Origin: a virus
Lineage: Duplodnaviria; Heunggongvirae; Uroviricota; Caudoviricetes
IMG/VR virus record: IMGVR_UViG_2671180847_000009
Direction: 5' to 3' (one strand)
DNA: 34,419 nt
The position numbers were made by a program, and so were the translations under genes. Below, one piece after another: positions 4,526 to 30,757 of this stretch (position 1 is the stretch's first letter; every line of letters starts with the position of its first letter). The notes under the pieces were generated by a model. The model made no database searches. It saw nothing but the letters and a program-made list of their open reading frames with translations, and was not told the origin of the DNA.

Positions 4526-5097
4526 TCTGACTCTCCAGCCTGAAAAGCGCGGATGTCGGCAAGATTATTAAGGCTATCCAGCACGTCCTTCATCTGTCGC
4601 TGACGGCGATAAATCTCGTCATTGCGATCGACCTGCGCCTGCGCCATTGCTGCCGCCAGTTCTTCCAGTTCCGGCATCGACAGTTTCACCTGTTGATTAT
4701 CGGCATCACCCCACGCAAGGGTGGTTCGTGCCGTATCGGATTTCGCCGCCATTACTACCGGATAAAGGCGGGCCAGTGAGTCGGGGCCAGCGTTCCATGT
4801 GCGGCCATTCCATTCGAACATGAACGGCTGCGCTTCCTGTTCTGTGCGCCATGCCTCAATTTCTCGTTTTTTAGCGTCCTTTGCTGCTTCCAGCATTTCA
4901 GGCGTAACAGTGAACGGGGCGATTTCGCCCCATTTGCCGCTTTGCAGTTCCTGCCAGATTTGCTGGCCTGTCGTCGCGGTGTCTTCTGGCGTGGCTGTGT
5001 ACGGAAGTGGGTCTTCCATTCCCTCAAACAGCACGTCGCAGTCAATCGCACCGGATTCGGTATAACGGGGACTGGTAATCTCTTTTATCTGCATCAT
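4522..5097 (-). CDS. Tail fibre assembly protein (chaperone), copy 2
   Basis: 191 aa; N-terminal region and acidic C-terminus typical of Tfa/gpG-type chaperones; directly follows a tail-fibre gene. Confidence 0.6.
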   Translation of the reverse strand: MMQIKEITSPRYTESGAIDCDVLFEGMEDPLPYTATPEDTATTGQQIWQELQSGKWGEIAPFTVTPEMLEAAKDAKKREIEAWRTEQEAQPFMFEWNGRTWNAGPDSLARLYPVVMAAKSDTARTTLAWGDADNQQVKLSMPELEELAAAMAQAQVDRNDEIYRRQRQMKDVLDSLNNLADIRAFQAGESE

Positions 5098-23391: not shown

Positions 23392-23456
23392 TGTGCGGTA
23401 TGGGGAAAGAGCGGGTAAAATCGGTGGCAGTAAAACGCTGTTCTGGGAGGTGGAAA
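23392..23456. other. Candidate cos (cohesive end) region
   Basis: G-rich segment ggtatggggaaagagcgggtaaaatcggtggc just past Q, where P2 places cos; shares GGGGAAAG with the recalled P2 cos core. Exact cut sites not determinable. Confidence 0.3.
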
Positions 23457-23714
23457 ATGCGCAGACAGAAAGCGCGATGTCATTGCTGCGGTGCACATGC
23501 AGTGATTGAGAAAACAGCCTGGAAAACCGATCAGTTTGCTGATGTGTATTACCGTTGCACCCGTCTCGAGTGCGGACATACCTGGGTGATGAATCTGACC
23601 TACTCGCACACACTGGTGCCCAGCGGGCTGGAGAATGGTGTGTTAAAGCTGTTGATTGAGCGGATGCGTCCGGAAGAAAAACAAATGGCTCTGGAGTTGT
23701 TGCAGGCCGGATAG
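23457..23714 (+). CDS. ogr: Ogr/Delta-type zinc-finger transcriptional activator homologue (85 aa)
   Basis: C-x2-C...Y-x-R-C-x4-C-x-x-T-W spacing matches P2 Ogr (C-x2-C-x22-C-x4-C); start at third ATG (23457) with GGGAGG RBS. Confidence 0.6.
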   Translation: MRRQKARCHCCGAHAVIEKTAWKTDQFADVYYRCTRLECGHTWVMNLTYSHTLVPSGLENGVLKLLIERMRPEEKQMALELLQAG

Positions 23715-23736
23715 CTGACGCGCTTCGCTTGTCCAA

Positions 23737-23784
23737 CCCGGAACGGGCGCACAAAGAATTTGCGCACCCGTTCCGGGTTTTCTT
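23737..23784. terminator. Strong hairpin terminator between convergent ogr-like and Rrf2 genes
   Basis: 11-bp stem cccggaacggg/cccgttccggg (23737-23747 / 23767-23777) followed by ttttctt. Confidence 0.6.
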
Positions 23785-24142
23785 ATTCAATGACAGACAA
23801 CTGATAATTTGTGTCTTCCTGCAGGCTGGTTAAAGAAATATTATCCAGTGCAGCCAGAATAACGTGCTGTGTATATAATCCGGAACATTTCATTGCCCGG
23901 ACAATATCACCAACACTGTAATTTTCTTTTGTCGGGATATATCCACCACCCGGGCCGCGTGTGGCTTTTACCAGGCTACTTTCCCGTAAATATCTGAATA
24001 TTTGCTCCAGATATGACAGTGAAACGGTTTCTTTGCTTAATTGCCGGAGCGAGATTGGCTTTCCGGTGTACTGTTTCACAAATTTAATCATTACCATAAC
24101 TGCAACTGATGCACGCTGGCTTCCGGAATTATCTTTCATCAT
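23783..24142 (-). CDS. Rrf2-family transcriptional regulator (119 aa, non-Fe-S type)
   Basis: S-L-S-Y-L-E-Q-I-F-x-x-L-R...R-G-P-G-G-G-Y matches the Rrf2/IscR HTH signature; only one Cys, so no cluster ligands; start at MMKDNS with GGAAG RBS. Confidence 0.7.
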   Translation of the reverse strand: MMKDNSGSQRASVAVMVMIKFVKQYTGKPISLRQLSKETVSLSYLEQIFRYLRESSLVKATRGPGGGYIPTKENYSVGDIVRAMKCSGLYTQHVILAALDNISLTSLQEDTNYQLSVIE

Positions 24143-24153
24143 GATTACTTCCA

Positions 24154-24441
24154 TTAATGGCATAAATTGATGGAGCGGGTCAGTGAATAAAGAGGCAATA
24201 CATTCCATCCCTTAGAGCGCCAGCTGTCTGCAACATCTTTACTTCTTGTTATCGCCGGTATTCCAATAGGATTATTTGCGTGCATCCATACCACTGGCTC
24301 TGCTTCCAGTGATGCAAGTGCGATTTCCAGTGCGATTAACATATTGTGATCGTCTTCATCAAGACCGAACGGGATGTCTTCGCGCCACGATTTAAACTCT
24401 GTGATTTTACGTTGTAACCATTCTTTGGTAATGGTGGACAT
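24154..24441 (-). CDS. Hypothetical protein (95 aa), unknown function
   Basis: Start MSTITKEW at 24441 with AGGAG RBS at spacing 5; ends 11 nt before the Rrf2 start. Confidence 0.45.
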   Translation of the reverse strand: MSTITKEWLQRKITEFKSWREDIPFGLDEDDHNMLIALEIALASLEAEPVVWMHANNPIGIPAITRSKDVADSWRSKGWNVLPLYSLTRSINLCH

Positions 24442-24455
24442 AGTTACTCCTGTTT

Positions 24456-24770
24456 TCACTTCGGGAAAAACGCCTGAATATTCTTTTTCACCTGCTGCAT
24501 ATGGGGGGCGCTGTCTGCTGCTGGTTGCGCCGGTTTTTCAGGCTGTACTGGTAGCGGTGGCATCCGTATTTCGTCTTCTGACCATTCTGCCAGCGAATAC
24601 GCCAACGCGGGGGTGCGTTTTATAAGAGCCAGTCCGGCCAGAAAAGCCGCGCGTTGTGCGCGGCTGCGTTCGGAGGCTGGCAGGCTGTCGAGGTAACTGC
24701 ACGCCTCCCGTTCGCTCTTGACGACGGCGGGCTTCAGATAGAAACTTATCCGTCTGGTTGGTGTCGTCAT
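24456..24770 (-). CDS. parR: ParR/StbB-like partition adaptor (104 aa)
   Basis: Start MTTPTRR (24770) 5 nt after parM stop; segment ISFYLKP...LDSLPASERSRAQRAAFLAGLAL resembles R1 ParR (IAFKLNP...LDSIPQGERSRLNRAALTAGLAL, recalled). Confidence 0.5.
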   Translation of the reverse strand: MTTPTRRISFYLKPAVVKSEREACSYLDSLPASERSRAQRAAFLAGLALIKRTPALAYSLAEWSEDEIRMPPLPVQPEKPAQPAADSAPHMQQVKKNIQAFFPK

Positions 24771-24774
24771 TGAT

Positions 24775-25734
24775 TTACTCCTTGTCCATTGCGTACAGCC
24801 CATTAACCAGAGCAAACTGTGGCACCCCGTCCGCGATGAAAGTCGCATTAACTCCGCAGGCTTCGCGGATAGCGGGTGCCACAATCTCCGCCCCTCCACC
24901 GACAACCATCACCCGCCCGTAACCCGAAAAACCCGCCAGCGCGCGGATCACGCGTTGTTTCAGTGTTTCTTCCTTTTCACGAATAACCGCCATCAGGCTG
25001 GCGTAATGCGCGTCATTGTGGATGTGCTGGCGCAACCAGGCTTCATCATGGCGATGTTCGATAATGGTATTGGCGATGTGGTGACTGGTACGCATACCGT
25101 TGGTGGCCATCACCGACAGCACGGCATCGGCCATCAGGGAAACGCCTACGTGTGGATCGCAAAACACCTGGCTGATACCTGCCAGTTGTCCCTGAACCTT
25201 TGCCACATCCAGCGTGGTTCCGCCCAAATCCACAATCAGCAGGGATTCAAACGGACTCATGTCAGCCAGTGCTTTAAAGCCAGCCGGAATGGATTCAGGC
25301 ATAACCCGTACATTACGGATAGTGAATGCTTCGCCGTTCTGGTATTCCACCGGGCGCATAACGTTTGCTTTTTTGCGGTTGATGTTGGCCATGTCCGGCT
25401 GTGCGTTTGTGTCGAAATACTCGCTCAGTGGCAGGGTGACAACCACATCCACCTCCTGTGGCGTGATGCCTGATTTGACCAGCGCATGATGAATGGCAAT
25501 GACATTCACATCGCTGTACTGGTATTGCGTGTCGGTCGTCTGGACAAAGCGATCGCTGACCGGATCAAAACCATAGCGCACGCCATCAAGCATGTAGTTC
25601 GCGGGCTGCGTGCCACCGAACGGCGCAGACCATTCCGACTTGAAGCTGTTCGGGCTGATGGCGTTGCGGCGTTCGCCGTTCTCAGTCCATGCCAGCTTGA
25701 TGTTGGTGGAGCCGTCGTCGATACAAATTTTCAT
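24775..25734 (-). CDS. parM: ParM/StbA actin-like segregation ATPase (319 aa)
   Basis: N-terminus MKICIDDGSTNIKLAW...ISPNSFK...YSDVNVIAIHHAL...LLIVDLGGTTLD...VMVVGGGAE parallels plasmid R1 ParM (MLVFIDDGSTNIKLQW..., recalled) across the ASKHA phosphate and adenosine motifs. Confidence 0.7.
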   Translation of the reverse strand: MKICIDDGSTNIKLAWTENGERRNAISPNSFKSEWSAPFGGTQPANYMLDGVRYGFDPVSDRFVQTTDTQYQYSDVNVIAIHHALVKSGITPQEVDVVVTLPLSEYFDTNAQPDMANINRKKANVMRPVEYQNGEAFTIRNVRVMPESIPAGFKALADMSPFESLLIVDLGGTTLDVAKVQGQLAGISQVFCDPHVGVSLMADAVLSVMATNGMRTSHHIANTIIEHRHDEAWLRQHIHNDAHYASLMAVIREKEETLKQRVIRALAGFSGYGRVMVVGGGAEIVAPAIREACGVNATFIADGVPQFALVNGLYAMDKE

Positions 25735-25771
25735 GTCGATTTTCCTTATGTTGATTAATTAATCGGCTACA

Positions 25772-25877
25772 GGATTTTTAAATCCCGTTTTCGCCTGTTT
25801 TGTGCGCGCTTCATATATCGCGGCGCGTTTTTTGCTCATTTACGGGATTTGTGAATCCCGTTTTTGTCTGTTTTTTG
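25772..25877. repeat. Two ~33-bp direct repeats, each with an internal GGATTT/AAATCC inverted repeat (candidate parC-like centromere/operator)
   Basis: Copy 1 at 25772-25804 (GGATTTTTAAATCCCGTTTTCGCCTGTTTTGTG), copy 2 at 25844-25877 (GGGATTTGTGAATCCCGTTTTTGTCTGTTTTTTG), about 28/33 identical; copy 1 lies just upstream of parM, copy 2 inside the 3' end of gene A. Confidence 0.4.
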
Positions 25878-28633
25878 TTTCCACTGGTCAGGCCACTCCG
25901 CAGCAGGTCTGCTTTGCGGCGGGCGCGTTCAGTGGTTTCACTGATTCTCTGTTCGTGCTCTGCGTCGCGGATGGCGCGCAGCATGTCAGAAAGCACGGTA
26001 ACGGGTGTTTTCATGGTGTTCTGGTCTTGCTGAAGTGTGGATGCCAGGCGTGCGGCGGCTTCAGGGTCTGATGCCCCTAGTTGTTCCAGATAGCTGGCGA
26101 CCGGGTTATGGCGGATCTCCGTGCTGCTTACGCCGTGGTTACGGCTCAGGCGTTGCCAGAGCTGCGTGATTCGGCTGTCCGGGCGGGGATCCGGTTTGCG
26201 TACAATTTCAAATCCCTGCGGTGCAATGATGCTGCCGTCAACGTACAGGCTGCCGCCCCGTAACAGGTGCTGCATCTGCTGTTCACCGATATGCAGGCCG
26301 AGAGATTCGGCAGACTTCCGCCATTCTTTAGCGAGTAATTCGTGGTTATCAGGCAAAGGCCGCTGCTGTTTGCGGCTCTGTGTCCAGGTCTGCATTTCAT
26401 CACTGCTGTTTTTTGCCTGTTTGTCACGCAGCGAACGCATCAGCGCCCGGCGTTCGTGCCGTTTCAGTGAGCGCATCCATTCATCCACATCAACGCCGTC
26501 AGGAAGCTGCGGCCACGGTGCTGGCCGTTCTTCCGGCTGTTCTGTCCCGTTGTTGTCCGTTTCCTGTACACGGGGACAGTTATTGCCACGAGTCCAAGGG
26601 GCGGCAGGGCCGCCCTGAAGGTCAAAACCATTTTCGTGGGCGTTGTCTTCTGGTTCTGGTTTACGTCTTACCAACTTCCAGTTATCCGGATGCGTGCACA
26701 CACGGGAGGATTCCCCGATGAGTGGTGACCAGATCCCGTAAATCTGTACGCTCTGTTCGCCGTAATCGTTCAGCTCATCTGCGAGGTCGTAGGCGGTGCG
26801 AATCAGGTAGTCCTTGCGTGGAACAAGCACGCCACCCTGTTTTTCAATGTAGGTGGCAAAACACCCGGCATCGGCGGCAGCGAGTACCGCATCCATTGCA
26901 TCATCTTTCAGCCGTTGCGGGCCTTCCGGATTGCGTGCCATCTGGCTGGCAAGGCGGCGCAGTTCACGCCACACCTGACGGGAGGGGATGCCAAAGAACT
27001 GGAACTGACGGACCCGGTGAAGGCGCGCCCAGCCGATGGCGCGCTCCACGCTCTCGGCCATTGATTTTCCGGTTTCGTGGTCAACGCGTGGCTTGCCCGT
27101 TTTCGGGTCGATGCCATCCACGGCGCGGCTGTCCAGGTTCTTTCCGATGTAGGTGGCGATGTAGCTGGTTGGTGTGCCTTTTGAGCCGTCGACATACTCC
27201 GCCTTAAAACGCGGAGTTATGTCATCGCCCAGCTCGTGGCGGTCCTCCTGAATGGCAATATCGCAGACGTGGGACACGATGGTTTCAATCTCGTCCGGAT
27301 GTGCAAAGACCATCATATGCCAGTGCACAGTGCCGTCATGGTGAGGCTCCACCGTGCGGATGCCATACCAGCGCAGGCCGTCGCGGTTCAGTTTTTTGCG
27401 GACCGCCGCAAAAAACGTGTTAACCAGGTAATCGCTGGAGTCGCGCATGGTGGCCCCGTTCCATTTGGGGTTCGGATGACCGTTCTCCGTTGTTGCGTGG
27501 TATTTTGACGGGCAGGTGACGGTCAGAAACACCGCTCTGTCGCCACGGGCTTCGGCCAGAAGTTCCAGTCCCTTCATGGTGGCCATCATTTCTGCCTTAC
27601 GGTGAACCGGGTTACTTACTCCCGCGTAATACACCGTCTCGAGATCAATCGTGAACCCGTCTTCATTTTCCAGCATGAAACTTTTCAGGAAATCGCGTGT
27701 TTTCTCGCGCTGTGCGCGAAACTCGCTTAACGCGTCCTGGCTCAGATAGGGCGATGTTTTTCTGGAAACCAGACAGGCGGCGCGGAGTTGTTCTTCTCTC
27801 CACTCGCAACGTAACAACCACAGTTTGCGTTTCCACCATTCCGCACAGGTCAGGCGAAGGATTGCGCCCGGCAGCAGCTCCGTGTCTGGTTCGTTTCTCC
27901 GGTCTTTGTCTGTTGTCAGTGTGTCATAATGCGGCGGCGTGACGTGCAGGTGTAACGCCATGCGAGCCAGCATCTGATATGCCTTCAGTGCCACCTCCAT
28001 GGTCAGCTCGCCATCGGTCGCGCCAAAGCCATCGCAGAGTGTTTCGAAGGTGCTGCTGAACATCGCCGCCGTCATGGTGGCCAGCGTCTGTATCTGGTGT
28101 TTGTTGAGCTGCGGCAGGTAAAGCAAATCGTCCAGGCGTTCGCGTCCGGCAAGGGAGCGATACCCCTGTGTCAGCCAGCGGCTGTCGGTGCGATCCAGAC
28201 GTTCGAATATTTTGCGCAGGGTTCCGCGTGCATAGCGTTCCGCCTGCCAACTCTTTTTGCCTTTCCGGCGATCGGCTTCCTGTTTTTTGCGCAGGAAGGA
28301 GAGGTGGCGAATAAGCGGATCGCGCAGATAGGATGGCAGCAGGCGCAGCGAGGCCATGGCTTCATCCACCGCACCGCGTGCCTGTTTTCTGGCTTCTCTG
28401 GCCAGTGTGATGGTTTTGTCCTGTTTTTCCTGTGCGTCCAGGCTTTTATTAATCAGGTTGCCCAGCGGTGTGGCGGAGAACGCCGCATCAGCCATTTCCT
28501 GGCGGCGCTCGTTCTCTGCCCGGTAGGCATCCAGCCAGGAGGAAAGTGCGGATTCAGGAGCGGGGATCTCCGTTCCTTCACGCCCCACTGCGTGGCGCGG
28601 TTGTTGCCAGTCCCTGATGTACTCTGTCGTCAT
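25811..28633 (-). CDS. A: Replication initiation endonuclease, P2 gpA-like (rolling-circle Rep), 940 aa
   Basis: HUH motif in TVEPHHDGTVHWHMMVF and catalytic-Tyr region GTPTSYIATYIGK; located where P2 gene A lies relative to cox and Q. Confidence 0.8.
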   Translation of the reverse strand: MTTEYIRDWQQPRHAVGREGTEIPAPESALSSWLDAYRAENERRQEMADAAFSATPLGNLINKSLDAQEKQDKTITLAREARKQARGAVDEAMASLRLLPSYLRDPLIRHLSFLRKKQEADRRKGKKSWQAERYARGTLRKIFERLDRTDSRWLTQGYRSLAGRERLDDLLYLPQLNKHQIQTLATMTAAMFSSTFETLCDGFGATDGELTMEVALKAYQMLARMALHLHVTPPHYDTLTTDKDRRNEPDTELLPGAILRLTCAEWWKRKLWLLRCEWREEQLRAACLVSRKTSPYLSQDALSEFRAQREKTRDFLKSFMLENEDGFTIDLETVYYAGVSNPVHRKAEMMATMKGLELLAEARGDRAVFLTVTCPSKYHATTENGHPNPKWNGATMRDSSDYLVNTFFAAVRKKLNRDGLRWYGIRTVEPHHDGTVHWHMMVFAHPDEIETIVSHVCDIAIQEDRHELGDDITPRFKAEYVDGSKGTPTSYIATYIGKNLDSRAVDGIDPKTGKPRVDHETGKSMAESVERAIGWARLHRVRQFQFFGIPSRQVWRELRRLASQMARNPEGPQRLKDDAMDAVLAAADAGCFATYIEKQGGVLVPRKDYLIRTAYDLADELNDYGEQSVQIYGIWSPLIGESSRVCTHPDNWKLVRRKPEPEDNAHENGFDLQGGPAAPWTRGNNCPRVQETDNNGTEQPEERPAPWPQLPDGVDVDEWMRSLKRHERRALMRSLRDKQAKNSSDEMQTWTQSRKQQRPLPDNHELLAKEWRKSAESLGLHIGEQQMQHLLRGGSLYVDGSIIAPQGFEIVRKPDPRPDSRITQLWQRLSRNHGVSSTEIRHNPVASYLEQLGASDPEAAARLASTLQQDQNTMKTPVTVLSDMLRAIRDAEHEQRISETTERARRKADLLRSGLTSGNKKQTKTGFTNPVNEQKTRRDI

Positions 28634-29308: not shown

Positions 29309-29628
29309 GATATGTGGCCTCTTGTAGTAAGTTGTGAAAACTCACCATCCAGAGGTTCCAAGCTCGGGGTGGTGAGACGTACAGGGTTGGAACTACCGGC
29401 TACAAGAGATCCCGGCCCGACCGAAATCGGCCCCGTACGCCCCACCATAATTCGTGTGCGAAAAAGACGTGGCAATACAGTTCGCACAAAAAAACCGCTG
29501 GCGCGGTTGTGCGCTCTTGTAGTCTGCGGGGTTCCAATCCCGGCACCCGTTTTATGAGGTGCAGCGGAAATGTAACCTGACTGATTGCGGCATGGCAAGC
29601 GGTTTTTTTGTGTGTGCATAGTGGTTAC
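29309..29628 (-). promoter_or_regulatory. Structured 320-bp intergenic element inside the early operon (terminator/attenuator-like hairpins, possible promoter or small RNA)
   Basis: No credible ORF; minus-strand RNA contains hairpin CCGC-GCCA-GCGG followed by U7 (plus 29488-29506) flanked by mutually exclusive stems CGCACAA/TTGTGCG and GTGCGAA/TTCGCAC; further long-range complementarity CTCTTGTAG/CTACAAGAG (29320-29328/29401-29409). Confidence 0.3.
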
Positions 29629-30180
29629 TCAGTCCGGTAGCAGTTCGCAAAGCACGGTGTCAGCGGCGGTATATCGTGCGTAAAGCCGGGCGGGAACCCA
29701 TCTTTTAAGGGATATCCCGGCTGTGTCCCGGATGTGCTTCCTGATTTCGCTGAATGTCATCCCCTTCTCATCACGCAGTTCAGTTACCAATTCCACCAGG
29801 TGATCGCTGTATCTGGTTCTGTGGTGGAGTTCCCCGTATTTCCTGAACCGATACCCTCTTTTTCTCAGGTTTAGTTCCACCGTGGATGGCGAGCGCCCCA
29901 ACTCATTCGCGAGTTCCCGGATAGTTTTTGTGTGGCGATTCCTGATGAGCATGCTGAGTTCTTTTGTGCTCAGGTGGGGGCGTTTGGCGTGAATAACCCC
30001 CTGAGAGAGCAAAAGGCGGATGCGACTTCGTATTGCTGACTCGGTTCTCTGAAGGTACTTTGTCAGCTCCGGCGCTGTGTGGGAGTGGTATAAAGTGGCT
30101 AAAAGTTCATCCTCCTGCTGTGTCCATGGTTTTACATGTGCCGGAGCCACACCAGGTGTACCCATTGGTTTGAGTTTCAT
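29629..30180 (-). CDS. Putative DNA-binding protein with tandem HTH-like repeats (183 aa)
   Basis: Three repeats resembling Myb/sigma-70 region-4 type HTH (W-x-x-x-E-D-E-L-L, L-x-x-x-I-R-E-L-A-x-E-L-G-R-S, G-M-T-F-S-E-I-R-K-H-I); AAGGGAG RBS. Confidence 0.4.
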   Translation of the reverse strand: MKLKPMGTPGVAPAHVKPWTQQEDELLATLYHSHTAPELTKYLQRTESAIRSRIRLLLSQGVIHAKRPHLSTKELSMLIRNRHTKTIRELANELGRSPSTVELNLRKRGYRFRKYGELHHRTRYSDHLVELVTELRDEKGMTFSEIRKHIRDTAGISLKRWVPARLYARYTAADTVLCELLPD

Positions 30181-30194
30181 TGTGATTTACTCCC

Positions 30195-30494
30195 TTACTG
30201 GTTAAGGAAAAAATCGAAAACGTTGTCGATGCGTTGCAGCAGCTCCTGCTGCATTGCTTCCGGCGTTTCTGATTCACCTGGTGACTCCAGCGTCGCGCAA
30301 AAATCCTTGATTTCATGATGGAGCGTCAGACGAATGGCAGGAGCCATGGTTCTGGCGTGCTCCAGCTCATCCAGCAGTGCCAGCACGGCAGATGGCGAGA
30401 GCATTGCGCGAAACGCCAGTAATTTTTGATGCGTTGCCATTCGTTGCAGGTCAGTCGCCAGTTCGCGTAGTTCCTGGTGGTTGATGGTGCTCAT
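30195..30494 (-). CDS. Hypothetical small helical protein (99 aa)
   Basis: ORF in early operon, start overlaps upstream gene stop. Confidence 0.4.
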   Translation of the reverse strand: MSTINHQELRELATDLQRMATHQKLLAFRAMLSPSAVLALLDELEHARTMAPAIRLTLHHEIKDFCATLESPGESETPEAMQQELLQRIDNVFDFFLNQ

Positions 30495-30757
30495 GCTCTG
30501 GCTTCCTTCAGTAGCTGGTTAAACATGTGAGTAAGTGGATTGCTACACCCGAACGGCATCGGGTTTACGTGGTAAGAAGCCTGGCCTCCTGCTTTGCGAG
30601 CGCGACCACCTGTGCTGCGGTTTGTTCTGATGACTAAGCCGCCGCGCCAGAGTCGGCGTAACTCAGCATTGATGGCTGTGGTTGGGGTATTCAGTGCTGC
30701 GGCGATTTCTCCGCCGCTACAACCCGGATGGGTAGCGATGTAGTCCAGAATGGTCAT
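30491..30757 (-). CDS. Small winged-helix-like DNA-binding protein (88 aa)
   Basis: Segment GGEIAAALNTPTTAINAELRRLWRGGLV resembles a winged-helix recognition unit; translationally coupled to neighbours. Confidence 0.4.
   Translation of the reverse strand: MTILDYIATHPGCSGGEIAAALNTPTTAINAELRRLWRGGLVIRTNRSTGGRARKAGGQASYHVNPMPFGCSNPLTHMFNQLLKEARA

Follow-up and report, generated by a model that had tools for sequence, protein, structure and literature searches.

What do two small, AT-rich genes do at the end of the early operon of a P2-type prophage, and do they belong together? The question is raised by the IMG/VR virus record IMGVR_UViG_2671180847_000009, a 34,419-nt stretch of DNA that was analyzed as a whole and is called the window below. 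Here, a gene for an Rrf2-type regulator (rrf2, encoding mini-Rrf2) follows a gene for a 95-amino-acid protein (orf95). A sequence-only reading had described an Rrf2 helix-turn-helix with the motifs SLSYLEQIF and RGPGGGY, the absence of iron-sulfur (Fe-S) cysteine ligands, and an AT-richness of the pair relative to the phage backbone. It had proposed that the two genes form a sensor-effector or regulator-effector module, possibly for defense. Our analysis confirmed the observation, and the interpretation was partly supported. The reading that we favor, tentatively and with slightly less than an even chance, is that a cluster-less IscR-type transcription factor and a passenger mosaic gene lie side by side at the 3′-end of the A-parM-stbB operon, as accessory early genes unrelated to each other. 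The features at the center of the question are the following:

23783–24142, minus strand: rrf2, the mini-Rrf2 gene, IscR-clade winged helix-turn-helix (wHTH), 119 amino acids (Pfam Rrf2, PF02082)
24154–24441, minus strand: orf95, chimeric Eaa/DUF551-associated mosaic early gene, 95 amino acids (PHROG 660/60)
24293–24327, no strand: 35-bp junction of the parental genes of orf95 (overlapping blastn segments against the variant prophage L009)

The product of rrf2 is a true Rrf2 winged-helix protein that lacks Fe-S ligands. It matched Pfam Rrf2 (PF02082) with E = 2.2e-13 and 50.9 bits against a gathering cut-off of 30, and both motifs are present. The match spans profile positions 2–85 of 132 only, and the full-length domain with its long dimerization helix was not found. 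The best NCBIfam model was IscR, yet the scores were below the equivalog cut-offs (59.3 against 207.55 bits for TIGR02010 and 46.3 against 275 bits for NF008110). The closest sequence in the PDB was E. coli IscR (4HF0, E = 8e-11). The AlphaFold2 (AF2) model, with a predicted local distance difference test (pLDDT) score of 82, had apo-IscR (4HF0) as its top fold match at a template modeling (TM) score of 0.72, and it also matched CymR, NsrR, and RsrR. The start codon was placed at MMKD, in agreement with RefSeq WP_000974052 (119 amino acids). A 141-amino-acid reading from 24208 is also open and was rejected, as it overlaps orf95 and is unlike the N-termini of the family.

Alignments with IscR homologues and E. 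coli IscR showed a deletion of approximately 22–26 residues in mini-Rrf2. The deletion takes out the [2Fe-2S] ligands C92, C98, C104, and H107 and the first half of the dimerization helix, and leaves a single cysteine in the protein. The C-terminal tail of IscR is also missing. With the Fe-S-binding loop lost, mini-Rrf2 is unable to sense Fe-S status. The major-groove base contacts of IscR are made by Ser40, Glu43, and Gln44 (PMC5411485). These residues correspond to S43, E46, and Q47 in mini-Rrf2, and the wing R62–Y68 is intact. The identity to E. coli IscR is approximately 40% and extends across the wHTH only.

Two known regulators are close to this design. Apo-IscR and the C92A "apo-locked" variant of E. 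coli IscR share the winged-helix fold, the three DNA-reading residues, and the RGPGGGY wing with mini-Rrf2. Apo-IscR carries no Fe-S cluster yet binds type-2 sites; mini-Rrf2 is likewise cluster-less, and its DNA binding is putative. Unlike IscR, mini-Rrf2 is phage-borne, is not encoded upstream of iscSUA, and has lost the ligands, half of the dimer helix, and the tail. CymR of B. subtilis and S. aureus is also a cluster-less Rrf2 wHTH protein with a SYLEQ-type recognition helix. Unlike mini-Rrf2, CymR is chromosomal and approximately 138 amino acids long. CymR has a full dimerization helix and needs the partner CysK.

Mini-Rrf2 has many short relatives. A profile search with four of them found approximately 80 clusters (90% identity level) of 100–125 amino acids in Klebsiella, Citrobacter, Kluyvera, Enterobacter, Leclercia, Salmonella, and E. 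coli. These clusters scored 92–179 bits, whereas canonical IscR proteins scored no more than 86 bits. An exhaustive search of representatives gave approximately 15–20 clusters (50% identity) that align through the C-terminal part. The same deletion was found in every member aligned. Conservation was read from an alignment of 48 sequences that were 34–50% identical to the window protein (mean column identity 44%). The S-x-S-Y-L-E-Q motif, the wing residues G63, G66, and Y68, and A98/L99 were invariant, and R62, G65, and G67 of the wing were nearly so.

All seven mini-Rrf2 loci that were inspected are early regions of temperate phages of Enterobacteriaceae. Three contexts were seen. The first is the tail of a P2-type early operon (the window, an E. 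coli variant, and Salmonella). The second is a leftward operon that runs from a cI-type repressor to exo/xis/int in lambdoid phages or phage-plasmids (Klebsiella, Citrobacter, Salmonella, and others). The third is a replication or nin-like region. The neighbors in the other contexts are DUF1482, Band_7, or other proteins. The literature search returned nothing relevant on phage-encoded Rrf2 or IscR, and no Rrf2 protein was present in any Peduoviridae isolate of the phage collection searched, as expected from the earlier remark that Rrf2 is not a normal P2 component. Mini-Rrf2 is a coherent, distinct, and uncharacterized family of phage early genes, and a variant of a known regulator type.

A linkage of mini-Rrf2 to SPFH/Band_7 genes was considered and dropped: such genes adjoin it in L014–L016 and occur in the early operon of NZ_CP043414, but there is no SPFH gene there in the window. 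A 215-amino-acid gene downstream of mini-Rrf2 in L014 was likewise rejected as an orf95 homologue, as it shares merely a short IALAALE linker motif (E = 0.005). In the Salmonella lambdoid prophage L016 (4965–5564; compare 4992–6007 in L014), mini-Rrf2 and the N-terminal part of the next gene downstream form one in-frame fusion, a protein of 187–199 amino acids. The downstream gene in this comparison has also recombined, at an IALAAL-type linker. This short linker seems to be a recombination joint across many mosaic early genes.

The second protein had been described as belonging to no recognizable family, which did not hold. The orf95 product matched PHROG 660 (E = 1.9e-17) and PHROG 60 (E = 1.1e-15), and its relatives are hundreds of prophage proteins labeled as DUF551-containing, as Eaa, or, wrongly, as valyl-tRNA synthetase. 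Searches of Pfam and NCBIfam gave no match for orf95, and PADLOC yielded just STK_OB with E = 0.032, which is not credible. In the alignment, members of the family begin with one of several alternative N-terminal helical modules and continue with an IALASLEAEPVAW linker and a middle module; a C-terminal domain, for example DUF551, is optional. The IALASLEAEPVAW linker is almost invariant in 47 sequences and is present in orf95. In this arrangement of an N-terminal helical module, linker, and middle module, orf95 resembles the lambdoid early proteins associated with Eaa and DUF551 (PHROG 660/60; P22 ea-region type). Unlike them, it has neither DUF551 nor another C-terminal domain: the protein stops ten residues past the PLY/middle module, where its relatives go on, and the DUF551 domain (PF04448) was not found by Pfam.

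The two modules of orf95 come from two different genes. In the L009–L011 variant of the prophage, the gene order is stbB, a 137-amino-acid gene, an unrelated 95-amino-acid gene, an 88-amino-acid gene, and the Rrf2 gene. In the window, orf95 consists of the N half of the 137-amino-acid gene followed by the C half of the 88-amino-acid gene. The junction was located by the overlap of two blastn segments of the window against L009 (22301–24327 and 24293–26000). The join is the 35-bp shared stretch at 24293–24327, encoding ...EIALASLEAEPV..., where the L009-type relatives have 651 bp extra. Thus, orf95 arose by recombination between two mosaic early genes of the Eaa/DUF551 type. The AF2 model (pLDDT 85) showed a helical hairpin and a small alpha/beta domain. 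The fold neighbors were generic hairpins or uncharacterized phage proteins only, and no enzymatic, toxin, or membrane features were found in the model or the fold searches.

Selection was compared between the E. coli and Salmonella copies by counting synonymous and non-synonymous changes. For rrf2, 7 synonymous and 3 non-synonymous changes gave a ratio of non-synonymous to synonymous rates (dN/dS) of 0.12 (p = 0.002 against neutrality). For orf95, the counts were 3 and 9 and the dN/dS was 0.82, which is indistinguishable from neutral (p = 0.49). The neighboring genes parM (28 and 10; dN/dS 0.10), stbB (13 and 11; 0.25), and ogr (18 and 2; 0.025) were counted in the same way. The counts suggest that rrf2 is under constraint and orf95 is not.

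These results also bear on the possibility that both genes are neutral hitch-hikers, that is, recombination debris at a module junction without current function. Such an origin would fit orf95, which is chimeric, has lost the C-terminal module of its relatives, and has a dN/dS near 1. It would also fit the position of the segment, which lies precisely at the boundary between P88-type early DNA and a structural module of another type. Against it, rrf2 is intact and evolves under purifying selection, and its family is conserved, with functional residues that do not vary. In both E. coli and Salmonella, moreover, the frame of orf95 is open and is preceded by a strong AGGAG ribosome-binding site. 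We consider it quite improbable that both genes are debris.

The gene order on the minus strand is A, parM/stbA, stbB, orf95, and rrf2, followed by a hairpin, the converging ogr gene, and the portal gene. The surrounding features are:

25811–28633, minus strand: replication gene A
24775–25734, minus strand: parM/stbA, actin-like partition ATPase, in the operon shared with orf95 and rrf2 (Pfam StbA_N/ParM, E = 1.8e-82; RefSeq annotation)
24456–24770, minus strand: stbB, ParR-like partition adaptor, 14 nt upstream of orf95 (Pfam Plasmid_stab_B, E = 1.9e-24)
23735–23779, no strand: hairpin with a 21-bp stem between the converging ogr and rrf2 (folding: −36 and −43 kcal/mol, z −6 and −7)
23457–23714, plus strand: ogr/Delta-type zinc-finger late activator, converging on rrf2 (Pfam Ogr_Delta, E = 1.4e-12)

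The gaps are 14 nt between stbB and orf95 and 11 nt between orf95 and rrf2. The ribosome-binding site of orf95 is AGGAG-N5-ATG. No convincing promoter was found for orf95 and rrf2, and the single promoter-like match sits within orf95. The two genes are a co-oriented extension of the tail of the A-parM-stbB operon. The hairpin at 23735–23779 is the terminator of ogr, with a U-run on the plus strand, and is likely also the 3′-end of the early/partition transcript. On its other side, the variable segment is bounded by the ogr gene. At 24151–24160, the stop codon of orf95 and the ribosome-binding region of rrf2 are spanned by a perfect 10-bp palindrome, CCATTAATGG, which may be due to chance.

The AT-richness of the pair was borne out by the GC profile. 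The GC content of orf95 plus rrf2 is 42.5%, with 40–43% at third codon positions, compared with 52.3% in the window as a whole, 57% in stbB, and 55% in parM. This value is in the lowest 1.5% of all 659-nt segments.

The pair lies between replication gene A and portal gene Q. This gpA-gpQ interval, which agrees with the variable cargo position named earlier, is a hotspot of P2, and one quarter of P2-like phages have a partition system there (Rousset et al. 2022). A supplementary table of that study lists StbA, the hypothetical protein WP_000104418, Ogr_Delta, the Rrf2 protein WP_000974052, and Plasmid_stab_B. This is the exact arrangement of the window, listed there but not assayed. The occupancy after stbB varies, with other small genes in P88 and vB_EcoM-569R5. 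Overall, the locus is already catalogued and amounts to ordinary mosaic early-gene cargo.

Several points speak for the earlier proposal that orf95 and mini-Rrf2 form a regulator-effector module for defense, exclusion, or anti-defense. The gpA-gpQ interval of P2-like phages hosts old, tin, and many validated systems, and the DNA of the pair is AT-rich and apparently acquired. The two genes are linked in 37 of the 37 E. coli genomes with rrf2 and also in Salmonella. In the related P4 satellites, six of the eight tested hotspot loci of unknown content proved to be defensive. However, PADLOC gave no credible match for rrf2, orf95, or their relatives. The pair and the old/tin cargo of P2 lie in the same interval, which is flanked by the replication and portal genes and varies in its occupancy. 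Unlike the pair, old and tin lie on the opposite strand, where a transcript start of their own has been mapped, and their anti-phage activity is proven. The strand and operon that orf95 and rrf2 share with A-parM-stbB resemble P2 orf91, an extension of the early operon. The defense proposal is weakened by both the PADLOC result and the orf91-like layout.

The linkage of the two genes is explained by recent common descent. The rrf2 gene was found in 37 of 5,426 complete E. coli genomes, and the same number have the full arrangement of the window, including orf95. Among the 1,145 E. coli genomes that have a related parM-stbB, 37 (approximately 3%) carry the cargo. The 37 E. coli copies are approximately 99% identical and thus represent one lineage. 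The Salmonella copy (93–97% identical) retains the orf95-rrf2 pair. The pair was found in one P88-like lineage only, in E. coli and Salmonella at 93–99% identity. The L009 variant breaks the pair up: two extra genes lie between stbB and the 88-amino-acid gene next to rrf2, and the parents of orf95 are separate genes. In the six other mini-Rrf2 contexts, no orf95 lies alongside, and orf95 relatives occur by the hundreds without Rrf2. A conserved two-gene module would be expected to recur in independent lineages or contexts, and this was not found. The genes are together only by common descent, which in spirit amounts to the lack of co-occurrence elsewhere that the sequence-only reading itself had named as telling against its module. 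Together with the near-neutral evolution of orf95 and its lack of effector-like features, these results led us to regard a defense module as very unlikely.

In a Salmonella relative (L005, 4946–5599), a 217-amino-acid predicted membrane protein is encoded between rrf2 and ogr on the opposite strand. It had no match in Pfam, NCBIfam, or PADLOC. By its orientation, this gene is closer to classical old/tin-type hotspot cargo than rrf2 and orf95 are.

How might a cluster-less IscR-type regulator work in this setting? Mini-Rrf2 retains the whole winged helix-turn-helix, including the DNA-reading residues of IscR and the RGPGGGY wing. It would most likely act as a constitutive, cluster-independent DNA-binding factor, like apo-IscR, that is made whenever the early/partition operon is transcribed. 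Judged from its recognition residues, it may bind IscR type-2-like sites. The recognition helix does not vary between phage types, hosts, or immunity and replication modules, and the targets are therefore likelier to belong to the host (the IscR regulon) than to the phage. In this scheme, orf95 is probably a recombination-made fragment of the Eaa/DUF551-type early-gene pool, and a passenger rather than a partner.

Several results weigh against the scheme of a cluster-less regulator with a passenger gene. Motif scans gave no IscR type-2 signal above chance at relevant positions in the window or in eight related loci. The core motif CCNYAN7TRNGG had 1 exact match against 1.9 expected. The flanked type-2 motif had 34 matches where 19 were expected, an excess that was reached at 3 mismatches and stemmed from W-runs. 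The protein scored 53.5 bits with the NCBI model of the Rrf2 superfamily (TIGR00738), below the cut-off of 73.3. The specificity of mini-Rrf2 cannot be read with certainty from its recognition helix, because SYLEQ-type helices are common to CymR and other Rrf2 clades. Half of the Rrf2 dimerization helix is missing, while palindromic sites need a homodimer; the oligomerization of mini-Rrf2 is uncertain because this helix is shortened. The timing of expression was deduced from the gene layout, and a par promoter upstream of parM could drive the genes in lysogens. Finally, the dN/dS values are based on 10 substitutions in rrf2 and 12 in orf95, and the direct contrast between the two genes was not significant (Fisher p = 0.08).

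Mini-Rrf2 might instead be a regulator internal to the phage. It would then bind an operator of the phage itself (the switch, late, and par regions are examples) and would tune the lytic programme without a host target. Rrf2 proteins are usually local regulators, and the mini-Rrf2 gene is always found in early regulatory or accessory regions. One candidate operator was seen in L017, where the palindrome TAATTCCC-N11-GGGAATTA at 4566–4594 resembles an IscR type-2 site and lies upstream of a cluster of a small ORF, DUF1482, and mini-Rrf2. This palindrome differs from the type-2 consensus at 2 positions. It is situated in the divergent spacer of a lambdoid prophage and was not found at the equivalent place in the other loci. 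On the other side, no motif near the gene is shared across the window, L005, L009, and L012–L017. Phage-specific operators normally co-vary with their binding proteins, whereas the recognition helix of mini-Rrf2 is invariant despite differing immunity and replication modules. The presence of the gene in approximately 3% of related parM-stbB prophages means that it is dispensable for the phage programme. A purely phage-internal role is therefore unlikely in our view, although it stands ahead of the other alternatives considered here.

A host-directed role could also be negative. Mini-Rrf2 might antagonize host IscR, either by poisoning its dimers through the retained C-terminal helix or by occupying its sites without activation. 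The truncated dimer helix and the missing C-terminal tail would suit such a dominant-negative design, and the DNA-reading residues are the same as those of IscR. The identity to E. coli IscR is only approximately 40% across the wHTH and is low in the would-be pairing helix, which argues against this role. We give the antagonist only a slim chance.

The remaining observations concern the prophage around the pair. It is an E. coli prophage, and the compared segment (window 23700–24800) is 99.8% identical to the pheA-adjacent prophage of strain EC42405. The early/replication part is 95–96% identical to phage P88 (Xuanwuvirus, Peduoviridae) from approximately 24573–24618 rightwards. The blastn segments place this breakpoint inside stbB, and the portal side has no P88-like DNA. 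The Ogr gene is the sole one annotated in the near-identical prophage. It adjoins the portal gene, as in HP1/K139/phiO18P-type phages, and is not at the P2 position. The closest isolates for this Ogr are Salmonella SW3/SI7 and Cronobacter ESSI-2 (no more than 52% identity), and P88 was not among the matches. The position and the relatives of Ogr therefore mark the prophage as a hybrid, in which a P88-like early region is combined with another type of late module.

The partition cassette (parM/stbA and stbB) is of the R1 type and lies directly after replication gene A, in the region 24456–25861. The inverted repeat ACGGGATT-N4-AATCCCGT was found at 25842–25861, within the end of A, with a variant at approximately 25769–25788 in the A-parM spacer. 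These two copies could be a centromere or a promoter region.

A further difference was seen at 29600–30500, where the window departs from the near-identical prophage in NZ_CP043414, which has an SPFH/Band_7 gene there. The window has instead a 183-amino-acid ORF (29629–30180) and a 99-amino-acid ORF (30195–30494), and the latter aligns with the ead/Ea22-like gene of NZ_CP043414. This looks like another variable spot in the early operon.

The cargo site had also been called cos-proximal. The P2 cos 19-mer had no match anywhere in the window at up to 3 mismatches, so this placement is an inference only. The stretch just past the portal stop codon (23392–23456; TGCGGTATGGGGAAAGAGC) agrees by eye with 12 of the 19 bases of the P2 cos 19-mer.

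For the defense-hotspot field, the locus is a caution: AT-richness together with a position in the gpA-gpQ hotspot is not sufficient to indicate a defense system. Part of what fills this interval is the ordinary mosaic early-gene pool, joined to the tail of an operon.

The regulator may have wider consequences. P2-type phages depend on a frameshifted tail chaperone. We speculate that several temperate enterobacterial phage types carry a permanently apo-locked miniature IscR, which takes over host type-2 sites on induction or infection and rewires Fe-S and sulfur trafficking (the suf/isc balance and IscS flux) to the benefit of the phage. This extended proposal is decidedly unlikely at present. 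It is of interest that host Fe-S biogenesis protects against lambda, while tRNA thiolation favors infection via programmed frameshifting (PMC3296357). If mini-Rrf2 binds IscR-type sites, it would be a copy of a global host regulator that the phage makes itself and that is blind to the signal. It would then give temperate phages a compact override of Fe-S homeostasis and would represent a new class of prophage transcription-factor "moron".

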